35,304 nucleotides of DNA from an uncultured Planctomycetales bacterium (GTDB lineage: Bacteria; Omnitrophota; Gorgyraeia; Zapsychrales; Fredricksoniimonadaceae): assembly GCA_964480185.1 (NCBI GenBank), contig CAYZPQ010000001.1:8240-43543 (forward strand), written 5' to 3'. The position numbers were made by a program, and so were the translations under genes. The notes under the pieces were generated by a model. The model saw only the letters and a program-made list of their open reading frames with translations. It had not been told where the DNA came from and did no database searches. Below, one piece after another: positions 9,001 to 27,330 of this stretch. Positions within the stretch are counted from its first letter, which is position 1; every line of letters starts with the position of its first letter.

Positions 9001-12000
9001 CGCGAAGAATTTTCTCTGCAAATCTCTTAAAAGCGTCAGGAAACTGAACTAAAATATCAGCGAAAGAATCACGCCAAATAAATGCGAATCCAAACAACAG
9101 TGACGATACTGCAACATAGATCCAAGGCATGTCAAATTCATTTTTAATTCCTGTCACATTCTTTGGGATAAATAACGTTAAGAACATTCCCACTAAATAG
9201 GCCGCGCTCAGGGACATAAACGCAATAACAATCTTTTCTACTGTCGCCATTGTAATGTGTGGGAAGGTAATCATGGCAAAGGAAGACAATTGAGTCATGG
9301 TGTTAGGGTGTAGTGCGACGAATGAATTGTCTGCCATCGCTGGGGCAATAGCAATTATTAATAAAGATGTGACTATCAACGCGGATTTTAAAGAATTTCT
9401 TTTGGTAGCTTTAACTGGTTGTTGTTCTATCGTGATAGGCATTTGTGGAGAATATGCAGCACGATTGTTTCTATCTAAACCACGTTCTTTCAACTCCTGT
9501 TCCCAATTCGTCCAAGAGAATTCTTTCGCCAATGAGTCTCTGATCGTAGGATATTTTCTAAATTTTCTTTGAATGAATTGTCCCAGCCATTCCTGCCAGT
9601 CATCTGCATAGCCACCATCTTCGAAAATATTAGCCTCCGATATATCTCTTAAATGGCTAATATCAAATCCTTTTAATTCATTGCCTTCAAATCTCAAGTT
9701 GCAGAGATTATTATCTGAAACATCTATATCAAAGACTCCTCTTTCTAAAACACGGGCCTTGAAATTAATCATCGTTCTAATTATCTCTGCAATAACAGAA
9801 TATCTTGGTCTTTCACGTTGGAGTTCTTTATTTAATTTGTCCTCTAGAGACTCTCCTTTAACCATATGTTGAATAAAATATTGAGGGCTTTCATCTGTCG
9901 CGTTCACGAATTCTGCTTGATCATTAATTTCTAAAGCCTGAATATCTGCGTACACTACCCCTAAACGTGATTGAGCTAATCTATACCCTTGGGTTGAATA
10001 TTGCGTAATCCAATTTCTTTTTGAGGCATCTGAACTATTATTTACATACTTTATAACTATTTTTAAGAGGGGTATCCGAAAAGCAATAAATACCGACCCT
10101 GTCACATCGATTTCATACCCTACCCCTTTAGAGCGTGTGTAGCGTCCAACAGCAACATGAGCTCTATAGGCATGTTGAAGATTATCGAATTCTTCATTAT
10201 CAATAGTGATTTCTTGATAGGCATTAACAACTGCGTCTTTAAGATCTCGTCTGTCAAAATCTCTTTGATCTTCTAATAATATTGTTCCTGATGCTTCTAA
10301 CACACCAAAATATTTGTTTGGAAATGTGCTGGGGTGATCTGATCCTCTTTTTCTTAGAATGAAATAGACGCTGATTAACCCATTCGCTGTATTTGTCATT
10401 AAAATATTAAAAGGCACTCGTTCAAGCTCAAGCAATGTTTCTAGTCGGTATATTTCATCAATTAGACCTTCAAAATATCTGCTTTGAATGACAAATGCTT
10501 TTGTGGGGAAATCTTCAATCAGACTGACACGCACATTATCATATTCTAAAAATTTTTGGTGAGTTGCTGTCTCAATAGGGAGTTCTTGTTTGAATAATTT
10601 ATAAGCTTGATGTTGAACCTTTCCACCTGAGTCTTTGTGATTGTATCCGATACGGTAACCAAATGGTCCAAGCTCATGCAGCATTTGAACCATCGAGGAG
10701 ATCAAATCATAGTCGAGTTGAAGTTGTTGATGTGATTTCCTAGCTATCGTTGCTGTTTCATGAAAATAAGGATAGTCTTCTCGTATGGCAACAAAATCAT
10801 TACCTACATCTAATTTATCTTTATGCTGTAATGATGAACAAAGTGGACAACGTCTCGGGGCCTCTAATAATCGTAAACCACTTTGACGTTTTGCTCGATG
10901 TGTATTGAGAACCACGGAAACGGGATATCCTTCAATGCTTTTCTGCTGAAGCTGTCTTTCATCCATTGAGCCAATTAATTTACTAAATGCCGGATTAATG
11001 GACACAACCCCATCCGTCACTGTTGTAACAAATCGATGTGTTAAAATTCCTTTATTTCGTCTTTGACCTTCACGAATCTTACGACTTCCTCTTACTGCGC
11101 CTAATGCAGCAACTGGTGTTACTGCTAACCATAACATGGGCTTAGGAAGAACTTGCGTAATGAGGCGTTGTGTCTTGGTGTTTCCAATCGCTTCTGCGTC
11201 AGCCTCACGCTGAGAGAAAATATTTGGTTGGATAAATTCAATTGGGTCTGTGCTAGATTGACTGTCGACGTACACATCATCTTCTTCACCGTTGATAATA
11301 GTCATGAGAGCGCCTGATATATCTAGTACTGGCTCTTGGGGCATAGGCATCACATCGCTAGACTCATTGACTACGTATTGCCGCGACAAATTAACGAGAT
11401 GATCGAAACGTTCTAAATGGGCATCGATTTGAGGAGCGAGCGTTTGAGCCATGCGCAGGAAGAAATCGTTCTTAGCTTGATTATCTTGCCTATCCTGTTG
11501 ATCAAATGATACGCGCATCTTTTCAGCTAACAGCAATCGCTGCTGTAATCTAGGTTCAATACCTTCCGCTCTTTCTGATTTTAAATAAAGATCTTGTTGG
11601 TATTCCATAAAGGCTAGGACGACTTCTGTCGTATCATTTCCTTGCCCCTTACGGACAAAATCATAGATCTCCTCGACGCTATAACCTATCGCTAAAGCCA
11701 AGCGCTTGGTAGGATCATTCTTTAATCGGGTGTACCACTCATAGATTGTGCTAGATAAATACCCTCTCTCTTCATGGGCTTGTTTAGCGCGTGTGATGTT
11801 GTAAATACCTTGAGCATCAGCCCACGCAATAAACTCCATTTGTTTTAAGAATTCATAGCTATTCATCGCTATGTCATAGGCAAATAATTCTGTGATCGTT
11901 GCGGCATGGTTTGCCCAGAACTCCTGACGAGCGGGAGATCCTCTAGGGAGATATTGCACTTTGCTGTACGCTGTTAAGAAAATTCTTTTTTGTTCTAAGT

Positions 12001-15000
12001 TGGTTTTTAAGACGGGATCTTGATGCTCTCCAAGGCTTAAGCTCCACGCGCTTGATACCAGCAATGAATCTAAATATTCAACAATAAGGTCATGGTCTCT
12101 TAATCCATTGAATTTAAGATGCAATCTCAATGGATCGACTAAAATAGTAACTTTATTAATGCCTCCTACGGGTTGGACCATCGTGGCCAAACCAGCATCT
12201 AACGTCGCTTCTTGAGTCCCACCATCACTATTAAGACGTTCTTTGTACTTGCCTATGATGTGTTGATGAGGATATTGATAGTTCGTTATTACATTTAACC
12301 GTTGTGTCAACGCGGCTTTTGCCCCCGTCGATGTTGGTTTAATAATCAGAGGATCGGTATTGCGAGGTTGAACGTGTTGCACAATGGGCGTAACGGATAT
12401 TTCTTCACGTTGATGAGCCGGACGAGGCCTGTTTAAAACTATAGTTACCATCAGGATGAGACCCGCTATGATCAACCCGCTTAAAGTGTTTATATAGCGA
12501 CGATATTTAAATTCTGGGGCCGTTAGTCTAATCCACGACAACACGATTAAAACAATAACCGGCAATAAGACGCCCGCCGCACCTAATAAACTTAATGAGA
12601 GCGCGGGAATCACGGCTAACAATAGACCGCGGGTATTAAAGTTAAATGCCTGCGCAGTGGGCTTTGATTTAAGATGATTTACAGAATTAATTGTTGGAGC
12701 TATACTATTTCTTAACGAGCTTTCCCCAGGCTTATTTTCTGTAGTCGCAATTCCCCCTGCAGGTTGTCCTGATAAATTTCTTGGGAGGGAGTTTGTGTTA
12801 ACCAAATTTCGATTGGATTCGTACAAATTAGATGTGTTAGGTAAATTCGGGCTCGACTGTGCTAAAGTAATATTTGTAACATTGGTTATTGGACCATTGG
12901 CTGGATCTGTTCTTAACTGGCCGTTATTTGTTTTTGGATCATTTTTATTTTCATTGATCTTATTTCTTGGGCTATCAATTGTTAACTCATCAGCAGGGAG
13001 AAAATAATTATGGACGATATTACTTTGTACTATGCTGTTCTTACTCTTTTTATAACCGCTCTTTGTGGTGTCTTGACCTGGATTGTTCACAACAGCCGTA
13101 AACACCCCGACGCCTGAAGTGTTTTGTTTGCTTATGCCTATCCTCTGCGCTATAGACGGACGCCCCCCATTATTGCGGCTTTGAGTCATGCAGCCTGTCA
13201 ATGCAGATACGGCGATAAGAAGTGGTAATAGCCATGAGGCAATAAATAACTTTATTTCTTTAAATCGTGAAGAAACTGTAGCTTTTCTTTGATCTTGGAA
13301 ATACGCATCAATAAGCCCATCCTGATCCTCAGCCGCTGTTAAACGATCTAATAAATCAATATAGGCTTCGAGCTTACCATCAAGGGGTTTGCTTAATCTT
13401 GGTCGATTTATTTTAGCAGTTTTTACTTCTGCCCCTGTTCTTGACCACTCAAACATGGCTTTAAACTCTTGGGTTAAAAACATTCCTCGGCGAGATAGAA
13501 CGGGCTTATGAGCTGTATAGAATTTAGCATTCTCTTTAATAAGCTTTCGTTCTTCATCAAGACGTTGTTGAGCGCTAAGTTTACCTTGATCTGTATGATG
13601 AAGTTCATGTAATAAAATAATCATCATAAGCACGTTTCTTACTAAGCCCCAATCTGAGCCATGACAATTGATATCTAGTAAGGTATTAGCGATATTTTCT
13701 TGAATTAAAATATCAACTCTGAACCCATCAAAATGATCATAACGAGCAGCAGGCACAGGCAGAGCTTCATCGGCAATGACATGAATGCTAATCTTCTTTG
13801 AGAGCAGATTGTGTCGATTAATGCTTACAACAGCTCCTAAGTCCGAATCTAGTCCAATTAATGCCCCAACCAATTGACCAGCTAAATTTATTGCATGCTC
13901 ATTGTTTCTATATGCAGGAGTAGGCATTACACGATTGTAGATATCAAGAAAATTCTTTGGCGTTGTAAAATCCAAATCTAATGAATAACGAATATGATCT
14001 TTGATATATTCATAGTCTGTATCTTCAACATTCCAACCACCAAGTGATGCTAAGCGCACTAATGACTTTCTTTGTTCTTTACGATTTCTTCTAAAACCTA
14101 AAAAGACAAATGGCAGTAAGGCAACTGCAGGCGTCGATGTTGAAACGGGTTCGGTGACTTTACTAAAACGAGGATTAAGATCCCTTGCCCCCCCTTTGCC
14201 AATATTTTTCATGCGTTTAATCGAAGGCTTAAGTTTAGTCGGCTGATTATCTTGTACTGGTGTAATCGGTTGAACTTCCGTCGGTATATCCATGCCCTGC
14301 ACGTGCACCATATCTAATTCTGGATGGGCAATGCCTGATGGAATAGTAGAAACTGCAGCTGGTGCATTCATTTCTGTCGTTACAGGTGGCATGACAACTT
14401 CTGGCGTAATGACCGGCATTGCTGGCGGGGTTGTCTCAATGATAGATGCTGGAAGAACGACTGGCTCAATTGCCTTCGCTTCTGCTGCTACTGGTGTAGA
14501 TGGAACTACGACTTCTTCGCGCACCGGCATATTAACAGGCGAAGGCTCAGTAATATATACAACGGGTTTTGCATCTTCGGGCAATACGCTCGACGTAGCA
14601 ATAGAAACTGGTGTCTGTACCTGGTTTGTATCAGCAACATTTTCCGTTTCCCAAGGTGTTAAGACAATATCCCATACAGGATCTTGCGCAGTTGCTGCTT
14701 GAGGTTCAACGGGTGGAGCGCTAACTTGCACTGTTTGTGCTTCAACGGGTTTGCTTACCTTCGATGCAATAGAATCATGTCCCCTATTTTCCGCTTCTGG
14801 AAGTGCGCTGGTATAAACGCTATAAGAAGAATATTGATCTTGCCCAATAAGCGCATCTAACACTGTCCTTAACCCTACATTAAATGTATTTGTGTCATAC
14901 ACATCACGGTTTTTAATCAACTCTCTTAACTGACGGTGAAGACTTCCTGTTATCGTTGGTATTTTTGATAATGACACAATGCTATTAATATAGTGCTGGG

Positions 15001-18000
15001 TGTAATCCGTCACAGGATGGGAAACTATCTGGTACAACAAGGGATCAATTGCTTCCTTGATATTAAAATTCGTCGCCACATGCGCAGCCGCGACTTGAAC
15101 ATGCGGATTTTCATCCCCACGCTTTAACGTGGTTGTAACAGCTTTGATAATTTGTAATGTATCATTGTATCTTGTCTCAAAACGTTCCATTAAGCGCCAG
15201 GCCACATAACGCACAAATTCATCCTGGTCTTGGCTCGCACTACGGATAATCTGTGCGCGGGCAGCATAGACGTGGTCAATCGACGCATCCCGTCGGATAA
15301 AGACATCAGAGAGGCTAATCAACCCAAAGGCACGCACGGGTGAGCTTGGATGATTATTGATTAGCTTGAGCATGTCTTTAGTTCCTCGACTATTGGGGAC
15401 CTTGTTTAAGGCCGCATTATCAAGAACTTGCCATGCTTTATCTATATCATCAATACCTGCCGCAGCATACTGGGCACGCACTTCTTGAAGTAAATTACCA
15501 TCAATCCCATAAGCATCATTGATGCGTACATTGAATGGTGCTGTATTTGTAAACGGTGGTCGCTGTTGAAGGAATGTTAATTCACGCTTAAATTCTGGTA
15601 GATTTCCACTTTGAAATATGGCAGGAACATTAACTGCTGGTCTCTTGAGTAATTTTGGTGCCACACCAATAACACTCACCATGAGTACTACAGCAAGTGG
15701 CCATGCTTGACGATTTTTATATAATACACGTCTTCCCACCCATAACAGCACAAGCGCAACGAGAGCTAATCCAACCATCACGGATGACATCGCTGACATA
15801 GCTAATATTGCTAAAGGATTGATCATGGCGAATGGGGTTGTTACGTGAGCTGCATCGACGATATCTGTTACACTTTGGGCATTTGCTAAAGAATATTGTA
15901 AAGCAATTAAGCCCGCTATAAAGACTGTAGCGGCGCCGGAAGCTGCTGAAACAATTTTGCCTTGCAGATTACGTCTAGTAATTGGAACAGTTAAACGTTT
16001 GTTCTTCCTTGCGCGTTCATCTGCAGCTTTACGATCAGCTTCGTCTTTCATGTAAGATGCGCTTAGATTCTTTTCCACACGCTCAGCGACAAAAAGATCT
16101 CGTTGCATCAAATCATCTAATGTTAATTTTTTAATTTCTGGTAATGGTGGATAACCAGCTCTGATTAACATGTAATCTAAGAGAATACGGGCCTGTTGTC
16201 CTCGCGCAAATTCAAATGGTTGTATGCGTAAATAGCGTAAATATAATGAAACGATGGTTAATAAATTCGCTCCCGGAAGAACACGTTGATTAATATCTTC
16301 GATGAGAATTGTCATCAATTCTGGAATTCTACTCGCCTCGGGAGCGCCCGGCATAGGGTAGGTGCTATGCCCCACACGCCATTTCCCTGCAAAAGCATGT
16401 TGCTCTTCATCAGAATATCGTTTGGAAAGAATGCGATTAATTTCAAAGAAATCTTCTTCAACCAATGCTTCGCCTTCACGAATTAAATTCAACACATAAA
16501 TCATGGCATCATAATTACGTTCATAAACTGATCTTCTTGTGTCTGCATTTCTAACCAATGATGCGGCTAATGACGCTAATTGATTCTCCGATATTGCTTT
16601 TGCTAAACTAATCACGTTAACAGCACTGAAATCCCAAGAGCCATCTGCTTTCTTCGTCATCCCTTCCCATGTCAATTTTCTTGCTAAATCAAAATCAAGA
16701 TTATGCGTTTCTGAAGATTCATTCATTTCACAGAGGTAACACTGTTGATTAGCTTCGACGCCATCCTCTTTAACCCATGTATGGACAAGCCCATCAAAAG
16801 TCGATGTTTGTGCCTTATTAGAACGTACGCGATGCACTTGTTCTTCACCATCGAGGTTAAACGTAATAATAGCGCCGGTTGTCCAGAATGGTGGAACATA
16901 GCGCCCTGTTTCCGGATTCCACTTGGCTTCAATGCTCACTTCTTTTAAACAGTCATATGGTTTATCACTGATTGCATTTAACAGAGCTGCACCTGTTTTC
17001 TTTCGGGCTATCTCATAATCCACACCATTAATCTGAATATAATCTTCCCCATGGGATACCCAGACAGGACCTTCGATATTACTCTTAATAACTTTCCCAT
17101 TTCTCACCGCTTGCGTAACTTGATCATCAATAATGGCTGCTAATTTATTAATAATGAATGTGCGATAAATTTGGAATTTCTCGCGATCTTGGAATTGTGG
17201 GTATTGCTTATTGAAAGCAACAACTAAACGGCTCGTATTTTTAGGTAACCCTGGCTTACGCAATGAATCGGAAATATTCACGATAGTAAATGCAAGATTG
17301 TGTTCCCTATAATATTGCTTCGCTAATGCCATAAGATCCATGACATACTCTTGCTTATCTGGTCTAATAACTCCCTTTTCATCAAAAACCCCACTCAATG
17401 GAGAATTGAAATAAAAGAAGATCTCTTTTCCCTCTTTACCAAATCTTTTTTCATCGTAGAGGGCATCAATGGGATTCCGTGCATTATTCTCTAACTGAAT
17501 AATTCTCACGGCGTCATATGCTTCTCGATCTGAACTATGAGAAATATTAAATTGCTGAATTAAACGCACAATAAAGTTCATGTACAGTTCTGTTTTAGGC
17601 GTCATCTTCGATGGATCGCGATTATCTGTATCCATTAAGGCGGTGGCCTGAGCTAGTCGGACAATATCTTGAGGTGGCATAATCCCTAAGCCCATGATAT
17701 ATCCCCAGGCTAATAAAACACTGGCCCCAATGCTTTCATTATCAACTGGCCAGTCATTCTTTGGTTTATTGTCCAACATATAGGCATGGTGATCATGAAG
17801 GGCAATGGCATTATTAATAATGTGAGGATCAAGCTCTCCTGGATTGGACGTATCCATAATGAAAAATTTGAAATGACTCGTCCCATTTAAATTAGCTTTC
17901 GATTGAAGATTTGTGAAATCAAAGACGGGTATATCTATTTTCTCTGACCCCTCAACTTTGTTATAAATTCTGCCATTGGTATAACGAAGCACGCTTTGAT

Positions 18001-21000
18001 CAATATGCAACACACCAATTTGGGTTAACATGTGTTTAACTTCTTCGGGTAAATCTTGATCATCATCTAATTGTACTAAAGGCAATACTTTGACTTTATC
18101 GCCATACACCGTGTGATACCACCAGGCTGTTAACATGGCTGATATGACAGCATCCATGTCAGGCTTCTTATGGCCAATAACACCGATAACACGATCACCA
18201 GGTTTAACATTTTTTAACACATTTGCGCGCGAAGAAATAAATTCTTGGGCTGTCAACAGAGGCTTATCTACGGTAACACCAAAAAGGCGTTGGCCAACCT
18301 GATGCCATTCTTCTGCTTGTTCATTTTGATTATAGGCTTGTGCATTTTGATAGAAATGGCCAATCATCTGTAAAATACGTATGCTTAAAATATGCGCTGG
18401 CATTGCTTTATATGGATCTTTGTCGTCGCGATCATAGACAGCTAAAGGCATTGCATCCCGTAATTGTTGAATCACCGGACGATTCACACGGTTTAAAATG
18501 CTTAATAATTTTTCGCCATGCACTTGATAAAAAGCTGCTTCATCTGCCTTTATAGCCTCTTGATTAACATCAAAACCATATACCTCGGCATATTTCGTGA
18601 TGATAGGATTTAATTCTTTCTCTAAATGAGATATCGAAGCTATGCGTGTTCTTAATATCATCCAGGCCTTGTGCGCTAAGAATCCTACTATCAGTGAGAA
18701 TATACCAACAGCGATGTTAAAACCCATGGTTGCTAAGAGCGTCTCATGATGTTCAATGGGTTGAATGACTTGTGCTGCTTGGCCCCTCACAAAATATGCA
18801 TCCAAGCCCCATAAGCCAAATACAATATAGAACGCTTTTACTGCTATATTTTCTATGCCAAAGAATCGAATCAATTCTCCTAACTCATTCATCAATATTG
18901 ACCTGCAAGAAGGCTCAACAAACAAATCAGCAGTTGTACCAGAACCATCTCGACCTATGACGATATGAGACGTCGTTGCTGAGTTAAACTTCAATTGAAT
19001 TAATAATTGCTTGGCTTGCTCTATAGTCCTGATGCCATATCCATTTTGAAATGGGATTCTATTCTCTGTTAAGACATCAATGCTAAATAAACCTTTGGCG
19101 TCTTCTAACACATATACTCTTGGCTCACGGTAGCCCCAGAAATTTCTAAGTACATATTCTTTCAAAGGATCTAATATTCTCTCTTGTAAAACACGATAGT
19201 CGCTTGTTTTAAATAAGATGGCCCCGTGTCCATTGATAGCACGAGTAAGCTCAGCAATACTCATGACCACGGCGCTTTCCGAGATACTATCAATTTCTTC
19301 TAATATTTGATCGACATCGATTGAAACTATCTTATTCTTAGACTTATTATCGAGACTACACTTTATTTCAGGAGAAACACCAAATTCTTTATCTAATTCA
19401 CCACTGATAAAAGCAATTAATTTCTCACGTGGATGAGACGCTATTGTGTGGGCTTGCTCGGCTATATCCAAAAGTCTATGCGCTTGGGCTAAAACCAATA
19501 AGGGTTGAAAGACTTCTTCAGTAGATCTTAAATTGAATTTGATTGTCGATACTAAAGTAACGCTTGTTAACACTAACCAACGTATTGGATCAATGGTTGA
19601 ATCATAGGCAAATAACCATTTTAAATAGTCTTGAGCTGTTTGATGATACTTCATGGTCAGAGGGGTCGTTCTAACAAAGGTATTTAAGAAACCATTCTTA
19701 TCTACTTCGGCAATAATATCTTTTCGCCCTTGCTCCTTTAACGCAAATGCATATAAACCAAATAAACTGATCCCAATCTTCGCATGCTCATACGCGCGGT
19801 CATAGCCAATATCTCCGCCTCGTGGATCAATAAGCCTAAAATCAATAACAGGATCATGCATTGTCTCCGTATTGATCATGACATTTTCCAACATAAAATC
19901 CCCGTGAATATGCTCGAGTGTGTTCGGAGCGAGTCTATCACCATAATGAGCTACTACTTGTTTTAATCTACGCTCAAAACCCTGTGTTCTTCTAGCATTG
20001 ATCACGACGGTGTCTTCAAACATCCCTGCCATCACCTGTGATTCATCTTGTGCTTCATGCAATCGCTGAATTGTCTTTCCAAGAATAAATTTATCAACGT
20101 AAGCTGATCTATGGCAAGGCTCACATATTTGATAAAACCCTGCCTGATTTAGGCTATCAAATATGGACTGAAGAATGCGCACGATGTCTTGAGGACTAAT
20201 ACGCTCATCGGAAATAAGACTTTCTAATGTTTGCCATTGGGGACTTGGATAATAAGGCATGTCATACCAAATCGTATCTCCTTGATCTCCTGTATAGCTT
20301 TCTAATACAGGAGGAAAGAATTTGGCTGATGATGGGCGATTAGCTTCTTTTTGAAGCGCTTCAATTTCCATCCTCAATTTTACAGGTTGCCCTGGCTTAA
20401 AACGTTCTTCCTTACGAACAACTAAACCATGTGTTGGGCTCTTCACTAACATGACCCGCGCATTGGACGCCGACCAGAATATCTTGACAACAGTACCTAC
20501 TCCTTCTCTTCTCAGAGGTCCTTGTTGTCCTTCTGCAGATTCCCACAAAATCTTTTCAATATCTCTATCGCTATCAATCAATGCCTTTGCAGCTTCTTCT
20601 AATGGCTCTTCGGATAGTTCTTTAAAATCATGAATCCTTTCATCTGGCAGCATCATGCCCATGACCTTAACGCCAGATGTTTCTGTTCTATCACCAAAAT
20701 TTGTTTCTAAATAAAAATTGCCATTTCTAAAGCGCACATCCCATGGGACTGGTGCCTTTAACATATCGGCGAATGCATCGATGGTCATATATAATCTAAA
20801 TGCACTATAACAAGCCTCTCCACTTGCTAATGATGCTGCTATTTTTTCTCTGAGTACAGGATTGCCGCGATGACGACGGTCTTCAACTAAAAACCGTCTT
20901 GACCCATCAGAAAATAAATAGGCTCCTGATTGAGGTTTATCATAATTACGCACCATTTCGCTCACAACACCCGCATTGTATTCATCCATGATACTCAATG

Positions 21001-24000
21001 CAGCGACCCATTTATCAATAGGAGAAACGTGCTTCATGACAAGCCCTGTTAAATCATTAACCCGATGAGTTCTCAAGTAGTCCACTTGTCTTGCTTTCAA
21101 CATCGCTATTAAATTTTCTGGAGAATATTCAATGCGACCATCTTGTTTACCTTGAACTCTAAATATATTGTATGGTTTCAATGCACCACTAATATCTCCA
21201 TTACCAAATGGCAATTCCTGACTATTGTCATCGACAAATGCACTGCTTGGACCAATGTAATAGCCTTTGTAAACGCCCTGTGAAATAAACAAAATGTTGT
21301 CAGGATTAAATCCATAAAATGCGTTACTGATAAAATTATCCACAACCTTTGTAACAGTTTCATCGTTAACAATAATAATGATTGTCTTAGAGGCAATAAC
21401 TATTTTAGGGTCACGGTTATGCTGTTTAGCTAAACGTTGCAAATAGCCTCGATAAATGACGAGCTGACGAGGACCTAAAGGAAGAATGAATCGATGCGCA
21501 AATTCTCTTAAATAAGTGTGTACTGTTGAATTGGGATTGGCTGCTGTGAAACAATCCAGCGCTTCTCCTAATTCTAATGAGAATAAATTATAGGCTGTAC
21601 TCAAAAAGACAGACCCAAAGGTCTTGCGCATGCGGGTCATAGCCCCGCCAAAAAAGAATATTGGGGCAAACTTGCCATCAATTTCTTGCTGTTCTGCGTT
21701 TGATCGTCCAGCCGCACTTATAGGTATATTGCGCATATTAACTGGTGCATCAACGACTACGTTTGATGCGGGGATCAATTGATTAACCTCATCTACTTCT
21801 TGGTCAATACATTTACCTAAAGCGTTGGTATCTTCTAGTCTTAATGCAGCGGCTTGATATTTTAATGATAATTCTTTGATGGATCTGTCACGTGGCTCTA
21901 TTTTAGTAAGCAATGTTCTTAAAATATCAAGTGGTGGCGGTTGACGGAAAATAAGGCGCCCACGCTGAAAAAGTAAATACTCGGGGTTAACCCTAATCCC
22001 ATATATTTCGGGGAAAGATAACACATGATGTACCGCATCGTTCATTGAACTATTAGTAACAATGTATTTCTTTGTTACTTGAATAGCTTCCCACTCATTA
22101 TGAATGCCCTTTAAATGTATTCTTTCATGCCCTTCAATAAGCCCTCTTAAAAATATTTTTAATTGTCTTAGATTATGTTCCTGAACATCTCCTTCGGTTA
22201 ATAATCTTTCAATGACATTAATAATAGACAAATGAACGAAGAATATTGTTCCCCTTGAACTGACTGCCATCAGCGACTTTTTAAGTAGTTTCTCATTAGA
22301 CGTAACCACCAGTGTATCAATATTATGGATGCCCAAATTATTATGTGCTAATTTAGCTACTAAACTAATCGCACGTCTGGCTTTATCACTCAATTTGACC
22401 ATCTGAGAAACATCAAATCGGTCATCTCGAACTGCGTTAAATGTATAGTGCTGGGTTACTTGTATGCTGGAATCAAAATAATAATCATCTGCGACTAAGA
22501 AAGGGGCTTTAAGAATATGAGCGACGCGCTGTTGGTGTAATGCTTGTGCAATAATCTCAAAATATCGTCCTACACGTGAAGGCCCTTTGATAAATGAATT
22601 TACGATATATGACTTATCCCTGCGCGACTTGCCTACATTGACAGCTAAATCTACAAAAGGTAAAACAGGTTCATCATTTCCATAAAATTCATCACCAAAA
22701 TAAACAATGCGCGGAGAAATACTGCCCACATCACGTAATAATTGAGTGATGGCGCTGCCTTTATTCACATCTGGTACAAATATATCTATGGTTGATGTCC
22801 CAGAAATTCTAACGCCTACTGAAAGGCCCTGTTCTCTAACCTTGTCTTTGATATATCCTTCCCACACGCGTCTCTTGTTATAATTGGGATCGAAATTTTT
22901 CCGTAATTGATCATCGTGGATTCGACCAAGCACGCTAAGACTAATTTGCGCGCCTTCTTTATAAATCTGTTGCTGAGGCTTACCTTGCCAAAAGGAATAC
23001 TGGCTAATTTCGCTAAATGCAGCAATGGTTTGTTGCAAAATTAGTTCTGCACGATGCTGAATATCAGGATCCATGGTGCGGTTATAAAGTAAGATAGGAT
23101 CGGAGTCGTATAAGTTAATCTTATACATTGTCGATCCATTATTAATAATGATGTAAAAATATCCCCTATAACCTCTACGTTTCGCTTCTGCTCTCAATGG
23201 TTGAATAACATGTTGATCAACACGCTTGTATTCAACCCCTGTGGCAATAGCAAAAACCGCCCCTTCTGCAATCAAATCAATAATCTTAACGGCCATTGAT
23301 GCTGGAAGTGGATGGTGTGTCTCTGCCAATGTATTATCTTTGTCGGCAATGACAATCAATCGACGGTTTTGGGCAACAATTTGTTTTAAACGATATGTTG
23401 GTGATTGTGTATATGCGTGTCGTCCTGCCACGATAAAAGTCAATACCAAGGCGATGAGACTCATATAATTCATTGCGCTCAGTGTTTGAGGAGGCAAGCT
23501 AAACTGATCTTGAGCATAAGTATTCGCTGCTAGCTTAAATAAACCAACCGCTAATAACATGCCAATAATATTTCTTTGCTTAAACCAGCGGCTGATGAAT
23601 CCTTTCTTAAACAATAAACTCAAACCAAAAACAAGGGCGCCTATTCCCGCGAATGTTGCGGTTATTGCCAACATCGTCCCTAACTTGATAAATGGACGTG
23701 AGGGGTCCACATTCACCACAGAAGCCAACCCTAAAGGCAATACCGATGCCGCATGGACAATTGGCCAGTAAAAGAATGCGTCTGTCCAGCCCACTTTTAA
23801 ATCCAACACAGTATTGGTAAAATTATCATTAACGGTGGCTCTTAGTTCTTCGGTAATCGCTTTTGCCCGTCGTGATTCACGTAGAGATCTGGCAAGTGTG
23901 GCAACCGTCTTGGTGTAATATTTAAATCCTTCAAATATCATTAACCCCACAAAACCTTGTAAGGCAAATACCCAGGCAAATTTTAATGACGCTTCAGTTT

Positions 24001-26164
24001 TAAGGATTAAATGCATGCCCGTAAACAATGTCACAATCGCTGCTTGAGCAAAAATAATAACTGTCATCATCAAATACTTCTGGGCACGCTGATGAAGCCA
24101 TTCTAATGTTAAAAGACCTTTGATCTTCTTATTGGCCATATACCCATCAATGATCCACGCAAAACCCTTGGCACGCAGAAGACTTAAAACTAAAATCCCG
24201 CCCGTCGTTAACCAGAAATGTGTTTTACCTAGTACGGCAATCAGCATAATCTCAGTAGCAATAGCAATGGCCATAACGCTAATGCCTTGAAGCAAAAGAC
24301 GGTCGATATGACGTTGGCTCATAAATGTATTATCATAGGCCTTCACACCACTGCGTATGATGCGATGGAATCCATAGTACCCTGCATAGGTTGTAAAGCC
24401 TAATAGAGACGAGGCGACAAGATGAATGCTATCAACACTAATTGGAATATAGGCGAGAATATGCTGTGTTGTATCTTTAAAATATACAGAAGCAATGGTG
24501 ATCATTAAGAATGGCACCAGCGATAAGGGCCCAACAATATTTGGAAATCCTTTCATCCCTTTGTCATACATACTCTCTTCCCAACGACGGACATCTTCTT
24601 CGGTCCCTGCCGGTGGTTTATGTTTCATCCATAAATAAATGATCACAGCCGCTGTGATCAAAGCAACAACACTGCTTCCCGTTAACGTACTTAAGCTCGC
24701 GATGAGTGGAACGATCGACGATAAAACCATTGTTGGTTCTTGAATAATGCCTGCATTGACGGGTATTGCTGTGGCTGATGCGGCACCGACGAGTAATAGG
24801 GGCCATAAAATGCTTCTTAGGGTACCATTGCGATGTTTACTTTGTGTATGTTGTTTACGTTGTTGTATATACGTATTAAGTCTATCAATAGCCTCTAACA
24901 CACCCCATGTTAGAGCAGTTATCAGTCCAAACAATACCACAGCCGTCATTGTTTTTTGCCACCATGTTGTCGTGAGCATAAATTCATCGAAATAATCAAT
25001 AGGCATCACCATACGACCCGCATCTTCAGTCAGAATAAATTGTTGAGCCAATGCAGGTGTGCCAAATGCGATGAACGATAAAACGATAATATGCATGGGA
25101 TTCTTTAAATTCCATCTCGCAATCGCTGCAATAAAGATAATCGCTATAAGGATACTAATTGTTTCTGGTGCAATTGTGATCTGTGCATTAAGGCCAATAG
25201 CAGCAAAGAGTGGGCCTGAGGTATTTTGAATCATACTCACAGGCTTATGCTGATAGGGATCATGGCTATTGGTATTGCGTTTGAAAATATCGAATCTGCC
25301 CTTAAACGTATTGGTTGGATACGTGATATTCGTCGGGGCATTCATCTTCATCAAATATGTCGCACCACCTTTAGATTCTAAACGTGGCGTTGATGGCGTA
25401 TCATTCGTCGTAGTCTCTCTTGTCACTGGCTGACGACGCCCAAGGATTTCTGCGCCTTTGCCAGTAGAGTGTTGCACAGGATTGACCGTAACCGTCGGTG
25501 AAGGATCGCGTTGGAATACTTTCCATTTCCAGAATTTAAGCCATGAGAGATCAATTTTCTTAACGACTTCGACAACCTTGGTAAATGGCTTGCCGATACT
25601 AAAACTATTCGTACGTTTACTTAATTCATTACTCCACTGAGCACCTTTAGTATTAAATGGTGTTGGAGTCACAACGTTACCAGTTGTTATACTATTCGTC
25701 GCTGCAGGTGTTTCTCCACGGAATGCATCAACACCCTTTCCACCTTTGTAAGCAAGTCCCTTGAATGTTGGTGTGGGCAATGCGCTGTTAGTCAATTCAC
25801 GTGCTCTGTCACTTAATGCTTTGAAATCAATGACTCCCTTGGATTGTTCCATCACACGAGGACGCTGTGGCAAGGCAAGACCATTGGTCATGACAGCCAA
25901 GTTTTGTTCAAGGGCTTCAAGATTGATCGGTTGTGCTGGTATAGTCGCTGGTGTATTGGTGACCTGTGTGCGTCGAGGTGCATCAATGGTAAAGCTAAAT
26001 GGATCTTGGGCGTGCGTATTAGGTGCGAGTGTAAATAAACCAAATGCTAAAAATATGGCGAAGAGCCCTCGCTTCTTAAACCAACGATTTAAGTAGCCTT
26101 TCTTGTATAAATAACGAATGCCCCATACGGTGGCACCCATACCAGCGAAAGAGACTGTAATAGC
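1..26164 (-). CDS. Giant multidomain membrane protein, downstream segment. It has 8,721 sense codons in the same frame as the upstream ORF and is 3'-partial, running off the window.
   Basis: Hand translation of the minus strand immediately after the TGA, in the same phase, gives uninterrupted protein-like sequence to position 2. The track lists no complete minus ORF in this phase below 26165; the four small minus ORFs there are in other phases. That is expected if no stop is reached. The first in-frame ATG after the TGA is at 26138-26140, inside a predicted TM helix, with no spacer and no SD-like sequence. Many enzyme motifs are listed as separate features below. Confidence 0.85.
2..2900 (-). 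other. Long Gln/Glu/Leu/Lys-rich, probably all-helical or coiled-coil region with no recognised domain
   Basis: The translation is rich in heptad-like helical sequence, for example ...LVELRKDSVQMFTNFDPINHRFIELKKVFTSLKNQHQRMYKA.... It has no hydrophobic TM stretches or catalytic motifs that I can recognise. Confidence 0.35.
2920..4100 (-). other. Superfamily-1 helicase/ATPase core, Upf1/DNA2-like (AAA_11/AAA_12 type)
   Basis: Walker A is VVEGPAASGKTEM, with GPAASGKT at 4004-4027. Motif II is VIIMDEASRE at about 3651-3680. Motif III is LILIGDLEQMGPF at about 3555-3595. Further motifs are LTKNYRAVPLLADLVSELSYAGQV, VVTFYTGQIELL, TTPQSFQGGERKAIIVD and LTVALSRARDHMAVI at about 2930-2975. Confidence 0.7.
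4890..5290 (-). other. Cluster of predicted transmembrane helices
   Basis: Hydrophobic stretches include SLPVVAAFVALLSSVYFL, FLLIFSSVITPFVITT and WISLILLLTSIVFVGIAIVMTYW. Confidence 0.5.
6390..6680 (-). other. HEAT/PBS-lyase-type repeats
   Basis: The translation reads RLAAAQLLGEAQHP...GRIQAAMALALHGHQDAIRTIIDRLKIEDDPRVRDVLLWALRHG. Confidence 0.45.
8861..8941 (-). other. Internal Sec-type signal-peptide-like segment (AMA|Q)
   Basis: The segment reads KLKRIVARYVMPWIIGLIAIFPSIAMA|QTAANGNDSS. It lies within a TM-helix cluster spanning about 8150-9420. Confidence 0.45.
9332..9412 (-). other. Internal Sec-type signal-peptide-like segment (AMA|D)
   Basis: The segment reads KATKRNSLKSALIVTSLLIIAIAPAMA|DNSFVALHPN. 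It shows a classical n/h/c-region layout with an AxA site. Confidence 0.45.
10230..10870 (-). other. HIT/GalT-superfamily-like domain (GDPGP1 / Ap4A-phosphorylase-like nucleotidyl transferase or phosphorylase)
   Basis: RRCPLCSS has its CxxC at 10838-10849. It is followed by GNDFVAIREDYPYF...ATIARKSH and GYNHKDSGGKVQHQAYKLF, with QHQAY at 10601-10615; compare HLHFQAY in GDP-hexose phosphorylases. The histidine pattern is not canonical. Confidence 0.4.
13190..13267 (-). other. Internal lipoprotein-signal-like segment with a lipobox (LTGC)
   Basis: RFKEIKLFIASWLLPLLIAVSALTGC|MTQSRNNGG has L-T-G-C at 13190-13201. This fits the [LVI][ASTVI][GAS]C consensus after a positively charged n-region and a hydrophobic h-region. 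Confidence 0.45.
13595..13609 (-). other. Second HExxH motif (HELHH), a possible metallopeptidase-like site
   Basis: The motif sits in MMIILLHELHHTDQGK, within a soluble block at about 13300-14060. Only the short motif supports this call. Confidence 0.3.
14240..14765 (-). other. Pro/Val/Glu/Ala/Thr-rich low-complexity linker
   Basis: The translation reads KPVEAQTVQVSAPPVEPQAATAQDP...TEPSPVNMPVREEVVVPSTPVAAEAKAIEPVVLPASIIETTPPAMPVITPEVVMPPVTTEMNAPAAV. The 136-aa plus-strand ORF at 14292-14702 is its antisense shadow. Confidence 0.6.
14900..15400 (-). other. HEAT/PBS-lyase-type helical repeats
   Basis: Repeats are recognisable in SSPVRAFGLISLSDV, DEFVRYVAWRLMERF and ENPHVQVAAAHVATNF, at a spacing of about 30-40 residues. 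Confidence 0.45.
15878..15976 (-). other. Internal signal-peptide-like segment (n-region, h-region, ANA|Q)
   Basis: The segment reads RRNLQGKIVSAASGAATVFIAGLIALQYSLANA|QSV. Two or three further TM helices follow downstream to about 15650. Confidence 0.45.
16100..16570 (-). other. Fic/Fido-like domain with a degenerate active-site motif
   Basis: YLRIQPFEFARGQQARILLDYMLIRAGYPPL has its motif at 16187-16222. QPFEFARGQQAR replaces the canonical HPFx(D/E)GNGRxxR. Helical Fic-core-like sequence lies upstream (EEDFFEINRIL...GKWRVGH). Confidence 0.5.
17190..18210 (-). other. DHH/DHHA2 phosphoesterase domain (family-II inorganic pyrophosphatase-like)
   Basis: Motif I is RVIGVIGHKKPDMDAVISAMLTAW at 18121-18200, matching GHxxPDxDxxxS. 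The DHH motif LHDHHAYM has DHH at 17786-17794. A C-terminal DHHA2-like part follows, around FYFNSPLSGVFDEKG...FTIVNISD. Confidence 0.6.
19740..20530 (-). other. APH/choline-kinase-fold small-molecule kinase domain
   Basis: The catalytic loop LEHIHGDFMLENVMIN has the HxDxxxxN motif at 19883-19906. It is followed by FRLIDPRGGDIGYDRAYEHAK at about 19801-19833, matching the IDxxxxxxGDxxYD pattern. An N-lobe-like segment VGTVVKIFWSAS...VVRKEE lies upstream. Confidence 0.6.
20680..21690 (-). other. UDPGP-family (UGP/UAP-like) sugar-1-phosphate nucleotidyltransferase domain
   Basis: APIFFFGGAMTRMRK at about 21625-21675 resembles the L(A/N)GGxGTR(L/M)G loop, with Gly replaced by Met. LPFGNGDISGAL at about 21181-21216 resembles PxG(H/N)G(D/G). 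Further on is GAYLFSDGSRRFLVEDRR. Confidence 0.5.
22630..23365 (-). other. HAD-superfamily subfamily IIB domain (phosphatase or PMM-type phosphomutase)
   Basis: Motif I is RRLIVIADKDNTLAE, with DxDxT at 23330-23344. It is followed by FAIATG, and the C-terminal motif is VNKGSAITQLL...IVYFGDEFYGNDEPV, matching the KG...GD..ND pattern typical of HAD-IIB. Confidence 0.65.
23500..24840 (-). repeat. Polytopic membrane module, copy 2
   Basis: Copy 2 runs KHRNGTLRSILWPLLLVG...ALITAAVIIYLWMKHKPPAGTEE...KGMKGFPN...YIPISVDSIH...QKYLMMTVIIFA...WVFALQGFVGLMIFEG...NDNFTNTVLDLKVGWTDAFFYWPIVHA...KLGTMLAITATFAG...KKGFISRWFKQRN...NTYAQDQFSL. Similarity is visible at nucleotide level, for example 26401-26470 against 23921-23990. 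The offset between copies is about 2.49 kb. Confidence 0.8.
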
Positions 26165-27330
26165 TCACATCACGCCAACTTTGGCTAATGGATGCTTTAC
26201 ATCAACTAATGAGGCAATCCATGGGAATACTTTTGTTGATGCATGTAAAATTGGCCAATAGAAGAATGCATCGGTCCATGGTATTTTCAAATCTAAAATG
26301 GTGTTTGTAAATGTATCGTTAATCGTCTTACGTAAGTCGTTTGTCACATGTCTTACTTGAATGGCAGTATATAATTCTCGAACAATGTCGCGTGTTTTAT
26401 TGGTGTAATACATTAATCCTTCAAATATCATCAACCCAACAACACCCTGCAAGGCAAAAACCCATGACGATTGTAATGAATAGCCACTATCTAAAATTAA
26501 ATACATTCCTGTAATCCACGTCGCAATCGCAGCAGGAGCGAATAAAATCGCGGTCATTAATAAATATTTTTGCGCATGTGCGTAGATTAGTTCTAATGAC
26601 AACTTGCCTTTATTATTTAAGCTCGCCATCTTCGCATCCATGATCAACTTAAATCCATAAGCACGTACCATGCCTAATACCAAAATACCAAATGTCGTCG
26701 CGATGACTTGGGTTTTTCCGATCATGTAAATCAGAGCTATTTCCGCGCCAATCGCTGATACAGCTAATAATGTTCCACCAATGTAATTATTTCTGATAAT
26801 TGTTTTCGAAACACGCACACGATCAAGAGCATTCACAGCGCTGCGTATGTAACGATGGAAGATGTAAAAACCAACATAGGTTGCCAACGCTAAGATTGAC
26901 GTGGCCACATAGTGAAGACTTAAAGAGCTAATGGGGATGTAACTTAAAACTTTTGTCGTTTGTATTGGGAAAAATACTTGAGCTAATACGATACCAAGGA
27001 ATGTTGGGACAAACATCGGAGCAACTGCATTCGGGAATGTCTTCATGCCCTTTGCATGAATTGTTGCAATCCATTCAAATGCTTTCTCACCTGTGCCTGC
27101 TGGGGGTCTGTTGGCGATCCAGGTGCGGATGACGATGGCGGCGGTGATGAGTGCAACAATAAAAGCGCCGGTTGGGGTTGATAGTGTCGCGAATAAACCT
27201 AACACAGGTGTTTCGTTAACCATTGTTGTACTAGAACCAATGACATCTGCATTAAGCGTGCTGAAATTTGACGTAGCAAGAATCAATCCTGCTAAAAATA
27301 GCATCCAGCGAATGGAGCGGTGCATTTTTA
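25990..27330 (-). repeat. Polytopic membrane module, copy 1. It spans the in-frame TGA.
   Basis: Copy 1 runs MHRSIRWMLFLAGL...ALITAAIVIRTWIANRPPAGTGE...KGMKTFPN...YIPISSLSLH...QKYLLMTAILFA...WVFALQGVVGLMIFEG...NDTFTNTILDLKIPWTDAFFYWPILHA...KVGVM*AITVSFAG...KKGYLNRWFKKRG...NTHAQDPFSF. It is collinear with copy 2 at a roughly estimated 45-50% amino-acid identity. Confidence 0.8.
26165..26167 (-). other. The only in-frame stop codon (TGA) in 11,767 codons. It could be a read-through or recoding site, a nonsense mutation, or a sequence error.
   Basis: The minus-strand context is aaa gtt ggc gtg atg TGA gct att aca gtc. The flanking peptide KVGVM*AITVSFAGMGATVWG aligns with KLGTMLAITATFAGIGALVFG in the paralogous module. 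In that copy the equivalent codon is TTG (Leu) at 23669-23671. Confidence 0.6.

Follow-up and report, generated by a model that had tools for sequence, protein, structure and literature searches.

The window analysed here, a 35,304-nucleotide stretch of contig CAYZPQ010000001.1 from an uncultured bacterium placed in the Omnitrophota, is spanned on its minus strand by a single giant reading frame, the central part of which codes for a HAD-IIB domain, a UDPGP-like nucleotidyltransferase, an APH-fold kinase and, farther downstream, a DHH phosphoesterase-like domain. This frame, the second of the reverse complement, runs through all 11,767 codons of the window with a single in-frame stop (TGA), and the remaining five frames contain from 520 to 1,165 stops apiece according to the frame statistics, so the frame is coding and the four domains lie on one polypeptide. 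The principal features, in the order of translation, are the following:

2..35302, minus strand: giant membrane protein reading frame, cut at both ends by the window (frame statistics, translation, 36 hydrophobic segments)
22562..23356, minus strand: HAD-IIB domain, probably of the phosphomannomutase / alpha-phosphoglucomutase type (Pfam, TIGR01484, PDB search)
20534..21904, minus strand: UDPGP-like sugar-1-phosphate nucleotidyltransferase of a divergent family without a Pfam model (family profile, AlphaFold2, Foldseek)
19430..20482, minus strand: small-molecule kinase with the APH / protein-kinase-like fold (Pfam APH, family alignment)
17600..18202, minus strand: probable DHH phosphoesterase domain (Pfam DHH below the cut-off, NCBIfam, motif spacing)
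16955..17599, minus strand: possible DHHA2-like C-terminal half (read from the sequence: DEKRF, ARKK (16991-17008))

An earlier reading of this DNA, made from the letters alone (hereafter the sequence-only reading), had described the four domains as a fused line for activating a nucleotide sugar. All the motifs it quoted were found where it had placed them and in one minus-strand frame, namely DKDNT at 23330-23344, GGAMTRM at 21629-21649, PFGNGD at 21194-21211, HGDFMLEN at 19883-19906, GHKKPDMD at 18152-18175 and DHH at 17786-17794. The end it gave for the region, 17190, has to be moved, as the DHH/DHHA2-like part continues to about 16955.

Three enzyme domains of the cassette

The HAD-IIB identity stands, the domain scoring above the curated cut-offs of both Pfam Hydrolase_3 (E 1.4e-10, 41.7 bits with a cut-off of 20.9) and TIGR01484 HAD-SF-IIB (44.5 bits with a cut-off of 41.8). 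It contains motif I (DKDNT), the cap arginine (SVLGR, 22922-22936) and motif IV (GDEFYGNDEP, 22667-22696). The sole significant match among solved structures, extending over the full length of the domain, is the atypical alpha-phosphoglucomutase (alpha-PGM) of Lactococcus lactis, 4BND (E 7e-8), the next one having an E value of 0.42. The domain is also colinear with the human phosphomannomutase (PMM) PMM2 (pairwise E 1e-3), SVLGR falling on SPIGR, which holds the substrate-binding Arg141, and GDEFYGND on GDKTMPGGND. The PMM / alpha-PGM type, which had been proposed from the motifs, is therefore the best-supported subfamily for this domain as far as its sequence can indicate. With 4BND and the eukaryotic PMMs, which are HAD-IIB proteins with a C2B cap, it shares colinearity across the domain, the DxDNTLxE form of motif I, the S-x-(I/L)-G-(R/Q) cap motif and the FGD..GND form of motif IV; it differs from them in having only about 20-25% identity, in scoring below the Pfam PMM model and in being located inside a giant protein right after a transmembrane helix, and its mutase activity is a prediction.

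The UDPGP-like domain carries the motifs GGAMTRM, PFGNGD, RVNDLT and IHDFK and has no match to any Pfam or NCBIfam model even at E 5, the gathering score of PF01704 not being reached; likewise, none of seven stand-alone homologues matches any relevant Pfam model. A PDB search with the single sequence resulted in eleven weak matches with E values of 0.07-1.4, five of which are UDP-N-acetylglucosamine (UDP-GlcNAc) pyrophosphorylases, PFGNGD being aligned with PDGNGG. A phmmer search against 1.84 billion cluster representatives was far more productive and gave 196 matches at E <= 1e-3, about 100 of which cover exactly the UDPGP-like domain. These homologues are either stand-alone proteins of 430-570 amino acids (aa) or parts of proteins of 1,000-7,700 aa, and nine of them carry two copies of the domain.

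When the window domain was aligned with 22 stand-alone homologues (alignment A1), the family motifs FxFAGAATRL, GLGPRQL, FYGF, PxGHGY, HRINDLT, NPxxQKGG, ExVTGDxT and IHDFK became apparent. When the A1 profile was searched against the PDB, 13 out of 13 matches were UDPGP enzymes (UAP1/AGX1/USP), the best having an E value of 3.2e-7. The AlphaFold2 model built on A1 has a predicted local distance difference test (pLDDT) value of 80.8 and a predicted template modelling (pTM) score of 0.84, and the top 50 Foldseek matches in the PDB include only UAP1, UDP-glucose pyrophosphorylase (UGPase) and USP structures, with E values from 1.2e-13 to 1.5e-11, template modelling (TM) scores of 0.45-0.56 and 400-510 aligned columns (about 470). 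The UDPGP call is thus upheld by every profile match and every one of the top Foldseek matches, although no library model sees the domain, and by profile and predicted fold the domain is judged to be a real, very divergent and so far unmodelled branch of the UDPGP superfamily. It resembles family PF01704 (UAP1/AGX1, UDP-glucose and UDP-sugar pyrophosphorylases) in its full-length fold and in two loops, with GGAMTRM on GGQGTRL and PFGNGD on PDGNGG. In contrast to that family, it has an identity of 11-16%, no curated-model match and motifs of its own (GLGPRQL, FYGF, HRINDLT, NPxxQKGG, ExVTGDxT, IHDFK), and its members are bacterial, are usually located inside proteins several thousand residues long and often occur in tandem.

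The window copy keeps 23 of the roughly 30 highly conserved family positions. Among the residues present are R4556, G4699/G4701, D4749, E4806, G4869/D4870 and K4893, the C-terminal lysine of IHDFK, which were matched to the catalytic residues of solved enzymes by motif only. Two departures from the consensus, a methionine in place of Ala in the GAATR loop and an asparagine in place of His in PxGHG, are shared with the closest relative, a protein designated P0001 and described below, so they point to a selected subclade and not to random decay. An asparagine in the PxGxG loop is also found in UDP-GlcNAc pyrophosphorylases (PDGNGG). The sequence-only reading had regarded the change from glycine to methionine in the first loop as a possible sign of a pseudo-enzyme, which it is not, given that the family consensus at this position is alanine and the methionine is common to both proteins.

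The kinase has the motifs VVRKEE with the lysine, HGDFMLEN as the catalytic loop and IDPRGG with the metal-binding aspartate. Its match to Pfam APH (PF01636) has an E value of 1.3e-4 and a score of 22.0-22.3 bits, just below the cut-off of 23.2, and 13 of the 22 family members match APH individually, the best of them with E 1e-8. In the alignment of the window kinase with 21 relatives (alignment A2), all ten invariant columns are kept by the window copy, including those of the HGDxxxxN loop and the DPRG aspartate, and so is the near-invariant lysine of VRKE. On these residues the window kinase is predicted to be catalytically intact.

The relatives of the kinase are mostly proteins of 550-600 aa whose N-terminal half is a sugar-1-phosphate nucleotidyltransferase, with the dual sugar-1-P nucleotidylyltransferase ST0452 as the best PDB match (E 8e-18); these halves also match LicC (E 1.8e-10), GMPP, GlmU, an inositol-1-P cytidylyltransferase and a phosphonate-pathway nucleotidyltransferase. 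Two other relatives are fused instead to an RmlD-like reductase. One of the nucleotidyltransferase-kinase fusions, P0080, is located in a polysaccharide cluster (L007 1-14350) together with genes coding for DegT, a formyltransferase, two glycosyltransferases of family 2 (GT2), an epimerase, cupins, a second NTP_transf_3 protein and a 6PF2K-like kinase. The kinase assignment made in the sequence-only reading is accordingly strengthened by the intact invariant residues and by the company that the family keeps.

Kinases paired with nucleotidyltransferases are well known from salvage pathways, examples being the bifunctional fucokinase/GDP-fucose pyrophosphorylase FKP of Bacteroides and the AmgK-MurU and LicA-LicC pairs; NahK is a known anomeric kinase. 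The window protein is similar to FKP and these pairs in that a small-molecule kinase lies beside a nucleotidyltransferase on one polypeptide, the order from N- to C-terminus being that of the kinase relatives. It differs from them in that the partner is of the UDPGP type and not the usual bacterial NTP_transferase, a mutase is present in addition and the entire assembly is tethered to the membrane.

Relatives, fusions and gene neighbourhoods

The closest relative, P0001 (MCR4337683.1), is a 5,669-aa protein from an Omnitrophota metagenome-assembled genome and shares 33-34% identity with the window protein over about 900 aa (aa 4364-5278, E 8e-131). Between two of its membrane blocks (aa 601 and 2046), P0001 contains a domain designated X1, a UDPGP-like domain, a kinase and then a PMM-type HAD domain, the last of which exceeds the threshold of the Pfam eukaryotic PMM model (E 1e-5). 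P0001 thus has the trio of enzyme types as well, though in a permuted order. In its HAD domain (aa about 1745-1990), DxDxT is replaced by FDVTGTL (Asp-x-Thr) and FGD by YFDNF.

Other UDPGP-like proteins are fused to enzymes of sugar metabolism in several ways: P0008 and P0006 to PGM_PMM, P0004 to a GT5/GT1 glycogen/starch synthase (P0079 bears that name from its source record only), and P0024 to a phosphorylase fragment, a GH77 4-alpha-glucanotransferase and the debranching enzyme domain GDE_C. P0003 carries a nucleoside diphosphate kinase (NDK), and P0005 a glutamate dehydrogenase. Among the stand-alone genes, P0060 (L009 7001-10859) overlaps the start of a 743-aa PGM_PMM gene by 17 nt and is translationally coupled to it, with GT2 and epimerase genes adjoining, and P0021 adjoins a ROK-family gene and a LacI regulator. 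Taken together, the fusions and gene clusters link all three families, each independently, with nucleotide-sugar metabolism; for the UDPGP-like family the link is specifically with enzymes acting on alpha-glucans.

No close homologue of the window was found in the word-indexed, GTDB genome, metagenome and viral searches. The word-indexed search with the 2,100-aa region gave nothing and that with the UDPGP-like family profile only one protein; the scan of GTDB representative genomes and the viral scan revealed no locus, and the metagenome scan yielded two stand-alone kinase relatives and nothing else. The tblastn search of plasmids and phages gave only generic HAD-IIB matches. An origin from a phage or plasmid was rejected, related records being absent from the viral scan and from this tblastn search.

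A probable membrane-tethered route to an activated sugar and its alternatives

The domain order along the polypeptide is as follows: a membrane block reaching to aa 3958 with basic residues after it, HAD, X1, the UDPGP-like domain, the kinase, X2, a hydrophobic pair, X3 (a further unassigned stretch), the DHH/DHHA2-like part, a Fic-like stretch and a further membrane block from aa 6449. The four domains, which had been described as lying in a row, are on one polypeptide but have X1, X2, a probable hydrophobic hairpin and X3 between them. The features surrounding them are:

23426..24814, minus strand: multi-pass transmembrane module, copy 2, directly upstream of the enzyme cassette (self-BLAST, hydropathy)
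21950..22327 (aa 4325-4450), minus strand: X1, with an invariant HExxH (GHERIH) (homology to P0001 copies)
18851..19429, minus strand: X2, roughly 190 residues without a recognisable family (neither Pfam nor NCBIfam gives a significant match)
18674..18850, minus strand: a weak and a strong hydrophobic segment, probably a membrane hairpin (or else a single helix) between the trio of enzymes and DHH (Kyte-Doolittle)

The last helix of the copy-2 membrane module is followed by QNRR and then by the HAD domain. Between the kinase and the DHH domain the Kyte-Doolittle profile has peaks of 1.47 at aa 5476 and 2.01 at aa 5521. If both segments form a hairpin, the DHH domain would be placed on the same side of the membrane as the trio, and if the strong segment alone spans, on the opposite side. 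Basic residues follow the helices that end at aa 3958 and aa 5542, which would favour the hairpin and a cytoplasmic location of both soluble stretches.

The DHH domain contains motifs I (GHKKPDMD), II (FFIMD, 17846-17866), III (DHH) and IV (LMDTD, 17621-17641), with H5710/D5714/D5716, D5816 in FFIMD, the DHH triad at 5836-5838 and D5890 in LMDTD; ARKK is located at aa 6098-6101. It scores 23.8 bits (E 6e-5) with Pfam DHH, under the cut-off of 28.1, and matches the NCBIfam Mn-dependent pyrophosphatase PRK05427 with E 2.8e-4 over the N-terminal 50 residues (motif I) only. BLASTP and hhalign comparisons with family II pyrophosphatases are similarly significant over motif I only. By eye and without a significant alignment, the aspartate of motif II lies 21 residues before DHH (22 in PpaC of B. 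subtilis) and that of motif IV 53 residues after it (52 in PpaC), the PpaC sequence used being identical to 1K23. This Mn-dependent family II enzyme shares with the window domain the motif I pattern GH..PD.D..SA as well as similar motif spacings, and has DAKEF/SRKK where the window has DEKRF/ARKK; the window domain differs in having about 45 extra residues between its first two motifs and a C-terminal half of greater length. No Pfam DHHA2 match was obtained in the C-terminal half and no homologue of the DHH part even at E 10 in the word-indexed search, and its single-sequence AlphaFold2 model has a pLDDT of 41. The DHH/DHHA2 claim of the sequence-only reading thus survives with regard to the four motifs, which occur in order and with family-like spacing, but not with regard to the Pfam scores, and the motifs suggest that it is probably a DHH phosphoesterase and perhaps one of the DHHA2/pyrophosphatase type. 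Its proposed part as the pyrophosphatase of the pathway is not sustained, for the identification is weak, the probable hydrophobic hairpin stands between it and the trio, and the domain was found neither in P0001 nor in any of the 150 relatives examined.

We consider it rather probable that the window holds one soluble cassette and part of the next one of a giant membrane-anchored multi-enzyme protein of the Omnitrophota type, and that the mutase, kinase and UDPGP-type domains together make a nucleotide-activated hexose. The activation-line reading would therefore hold for the HAD, UDPGP-like and kinase domains, the trio being conserved in P0001 and in fusions and operons, but not for the pyrophosphatase role or for the flanking GlmS-like and HIT-like regions, which are faint. 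The cassette would be held between the multi-pass membrane block and the hydrophobic hairpin and so tethered to the cytoplasmic face, where it should be located given that its steps need ATP and nucleoside triphosphate (NTP). The PMM / alpha-PGM-type HAD would interconvert hexose-6-phosphate and hexose-1-phosphate, the APH-fold kinase would provide a salvage entry by converting a free sugar into sugar-1-phosphate, and the UDPGP-type domain would turn sugar-1-phosphate and NTP into a nucleoside-diphosphate (NDP) sugar and pyrophosphate. The NDP-sugar would then feed glycosyltransferases elsewhere in the giant protein or genome, the partners in the relatives being glycogen/starch synthase and other alpha-glucan enzymes, and the DHH/DHHA2-like domain, outside the conserved core, may hydrolyse the released pyrophosphate. 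Fold, family and catalytic motifs of the HAD, UDPGP-like and kinase domains are shown here, as are the fusion and operon partners of their relatives, whereas we infer which substrates are used, in which direction the flux runs, how the protein is placed in the membrane and whether the DHH domain takes part. As for the substrate, the fusion partners would argue for glucose, and the UAP-like asparagine and a faint GlmS-like stretch, weakly, for hexosamine.

Several points weigh against this proposal. The UDPGP-like and kinase families are without a member of established activity or substrate. The kinase family profile matches no solved APH-type sugar kinase at E <= 1, NahK and AmgK included, so the anomeric sugar substrate is a guess, and the anomeric 1-kinase specificity suggested by the sequence-only reading is not supported by this profile and can be derived only from the fusion partners. 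The HAD domain of the window gives no match to the Pfam PMM model and its sequence cannot separate a mutase from a phosphatase, and the HAD domain of P0001 may, judging by its changed motifs, be catalytically altered or inactive. The UDPGP-like copy deviates at 7 of the roughly 30 highly conserved positions, including the QKGG lysine (PQSG here). The topology is drawn solely from hydropathy and the positive-inside rule. Finally, no glycosyltransferase is detectable by domain searches in the 35 kb window, nor had one been recognised in the sequence-only reading, though the reading frame is cut at both ends.

The main alternative, which we regard as unlikely, is that the four enzymes are mere neighbours in a mixture of domains without a channelled pathway, the HAD domain being a sugar-phosphate phosphatase and the DHH domain a nucleotide or oligonucleotide phosphoesterase. 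Giant Omnitrophota proteins do hold 20-50 Pfam families each, and HAD hydrolases have been put in their regulatory and not in their sugar module (bioRxiv 10.64898/2026.06.07.730766). The unrelated domains interspersed here (X1, X2, the Fic-like stretch, a superfamily-1 helicase), the absence of DHH from all the relatives examined and the hairpin that parts it from the trio would fit this as well. However, the trio recurs in P0001 despite an identity of about 33% and a permuted order, each family has nucleotide-sugar enzymes as partners in independent fusions and operons, and the sole significant solved relative of the HAD domain is a mutase and not a phosphatase.

It is very unlikely that the UDPGP-like domain, and perhaps the DHH domain, are inactive and serve as binding or structural modules of a pseudo-enzyme scaffold. 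The seven deviations in the UDPGP-like copy, among them that of the QKGG lysine, the kinase and DHH matches that score under the Pfam gathering thresholds, the P0001 HAD domain without the second aspartate of motif I and the degenerate motif of the nearby Fic-like stretch could all be read in this way. Against that, the kinase keeps all its invariant residues, the HAD domain keeps motifs I and IV and the cap arginine, and the 23 conserved UDPGP-like positions retained include R4556, D4749, E4806, G4869/D4870 and the IHDFK lysine; moreover, two of the deviations are common to P0001, so they are under selection, and the PxGxG-loop asparagine is also used by UDP-GlcNAc pyrophosphorylases (PDGNGG). 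Just as improbable in our opinion is that the kinase-nucleotidyltransferase pair activates a non-sugar alcohol (choline, ethanolamine or inositol) for the decoration of a surface polymer, as the choline kinase LicA and the cytidylyltransferase LicC do, for although the APH fold includes choline and ethanolamine kinases and the nucleotidyltransferases fused to the kinase relatives match LicC, the inositol-1-P cytidylyltransferase and the phosphonate-pathway enzyme, the partner in the window is UDPGP-like with solved profile and fold matches that are all UDP-hexose or UDP-N-acetylhexosamine (UDP-HexNAc) pyrophosphorylases, choline activation has no use for a PMM-type mutase and the fusions of the UDPGP-like family point to alpha-glucan metabolism.

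Beyond the favoured route to an activated hexose, a more specific version can be put forward as a tentative and rather doubtful speculation. The Pfam-less UDPGP-like family might be the NDP-glucose (or NDP-hexosamine) pyrophosphorylase so far missing in Omnitrophota and related lineages, which in the giant proteins would be wired with a mutase, a salvage kinase and, here, its own pyrophosphatase and GlmS-like amidotransferase as a membrane-tethered, self-contained line channelling prey sugar into an activated donor. The subclade with the His-to-Asn and Ala-to-Met changes (the window and P0001) might then represent a UAP-like version with specificity for hexosamine, its partner being an enzyme similar to N-acetylhexosamine 1-kinase.

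Published giant proteins and the remaining features

Giant proteins of Omnitrophota have been described as rich in transmembrane helices and as containing HEAT repeats together with enzyme domains of high divergence, among them GT5 glycogen-synthase-like, GT1, PGM/PMM and glycolytic ones (West-Roberts et al. 2023, bioRxiv 10.1101/2023.11.21.568195). In a catalogue of 916 proteins, class 1 comprises "multi-enzyme metabolic clusters" with a sugar module (starch synthase, GT1, PGM/PMM, ROK kinase) and HAD/HIT/NUDIX content (Nielsen & Lui 2026, bioRxiv 10.64898/2026.06.07.730766), and the topology of these giants is predicted to be membrane-anchored and cytoplasm-facing (bioRxiv 10.64898/2026.06.07.730766). 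UDPGP-type, APH-type and DHH domains are not mentioned in the main text of either paper (10.1101/2023.11.21.568195, 10.64898/2026.06.07.730766). The window frame is similar to the published giants in exceeding 10,000 aa, in its dozens of hydrophobic segments, weak HEAT matches and many unrelated divergent enzyme domains (HAD, HIT-like, kinase, sugar metabolism), and its best homologues are Omnitrophota proteins carrying GT5 glycogen synthase and PGM/PMM. The window itself contains no marker gene. Unlike them, it contains no SecA-DEAD, GT5, GT1, dockerin or peptidase C39 domain in the window and has a superfamily-1 (SF1) helicase rather than the SecA-DEAD reported for many. The protein is a very divergent member of the Omnitrophota-type giant multi-enzyme membrane proteins, and the fusion as such, which had appeared to be something new, is an instance of a kind already described; the novelty lies in recognising the UDPGP-like family and a conserved mutase/pyrophosphorylase/kinase cassette.

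The giant Omnitrophota proteins are mostly "dark matter" with regard to annotation, and the published catalogues contain a glycogen synthase and a phosphoglucomutase and no enzyme making the nucleotide-sugar that links them. A widespread unannotated domain, with about 100 representatives and often in tandem, proves to be a relative of UDP-sugar pyrophosphorylases and would add the missing step. The family justifies a new profile model, which would improve the annotation of Omnitrophota-type genomes. The conservation of the cassette between two very divergent giants offers a concrete biochemical hypothesis testable on small, expressible pieces of otherwise intractable proteins. The general picture of membrane-anchored multi-enzyme arrays is left unaltered.

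The in-frame stop is located upstream of the cassette:

26165-26167, minus strand: in-frame TGA (frame statistics)

It divides the frame into pieces of at least 3,045 codons upstream and at least 8,721 codons downstream, both running off the window, which is why the open reading frame lister gave only a 3,022-aa piece upstream of the TGA. The hydropathy scan of the translation revealed 36 strongly hydrophobic 19-residue segments clustered in blocks, and a multi-pass module of about 440 residues is duplicated, the copies at aa 2662-3104 (25988-27316) and aa 3496-3936 (23492-24814) being 49% identical (E 2e-140, self-BLAST); no family could be assigned to it. The TGA lies inside this module opposite a leucine codon (TTG) of copy 2, with conservation undiminished beyond it, and since the alignment of the two copies runs through the TGA, it should be a nonsense mutation of recent origin, a read-through site or an error in the sequencing. 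From this alignment the split frame is judged to be, or recently to have been, one protein of more than 11,700 aa. An alternative genetic code was rejected, for TGA occurs once in 11,767 codons and is hence not a regular sense codon. The composition of the translation is ordinarily bacterial, yet cysteine makes up just 0.2% (27 residues).

X1 is a domain of roughly 125 aa homologous to four or five repeated copies in P0001 (E 5e-8 to 4e-4), each in a similar sequence context, and in its alignment (A3) the H, E and H of HExxH are invariant. Its profile matches no Pfam family and, in the PDB, gave only spurious matches to designed repeat proteins. One possibility suggested by the motif is that X1 is a zinc-peptidase-like module processing the giant protein. 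A possible second copy is located near 13400-13882, with HELHH at aa 7231.

The GlmS-like amidotransferase and SIS region and the HIT/GalT-like domain, which the sequence-only reading had placed upstream and downstream of the four domains, are faintly supported and are leads, not findings. The GlmS-like region lies upstream of the TGA and has no Pfam or PDB match to back an amidotransferase, but it shows two short colinear pairwise matches with E. coli GlmS (E 0.006 for GHVRFATAG...HPHV and E 0.01 for the SIS segment), and a sub-threshold Pfam SIS match (E 0.032). Motifs resembling a class-II N-terminal-nucleophile (Ntn) amidotransferase, CGNFGIGG, GHVRFATAGK and THNGDF, were observed at the motif and pairwise level at 31340-31867 (aa 1145-1320), around Cys1148 (31856-31858), one of the 27 cysteines. 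An Ntn amidotransferase works only when its catalytic cysteine is the free N-terminal residue, and this one could therefore be active only if the giant protein were cut immediately before Cys1148. The HIT-like region matches Pfam DUF4922 only, below the cut-off (E 0.003-0.011), and has no PDB match; DUF4922 belongs to the HIT clan.

Downstream of the DHH part, a Fic-like stretch, QPFEFARGQQARILLDYMLIRAGYP, occurs at 16187-16222 (aa 6360-6371) on the minus strand, within about 15968-16492, with a Pfam Fic E value of 0.088. Its version of the catalytic HxFx(D/E)GNGRxxR motif is degenerate, the histidine being replaced with glutamine and GNG missing. In the C-terminal part of the frame, a sub-threshold HEAT_2 match is located at aa about 9540-9631, and a superfamily-1 (Upf1-like) helicase/ATPase at 2915-4087 (aa about 10405-10795) matches AAA_12 with E 4e-29 and AAA_11 with E 2e-12.

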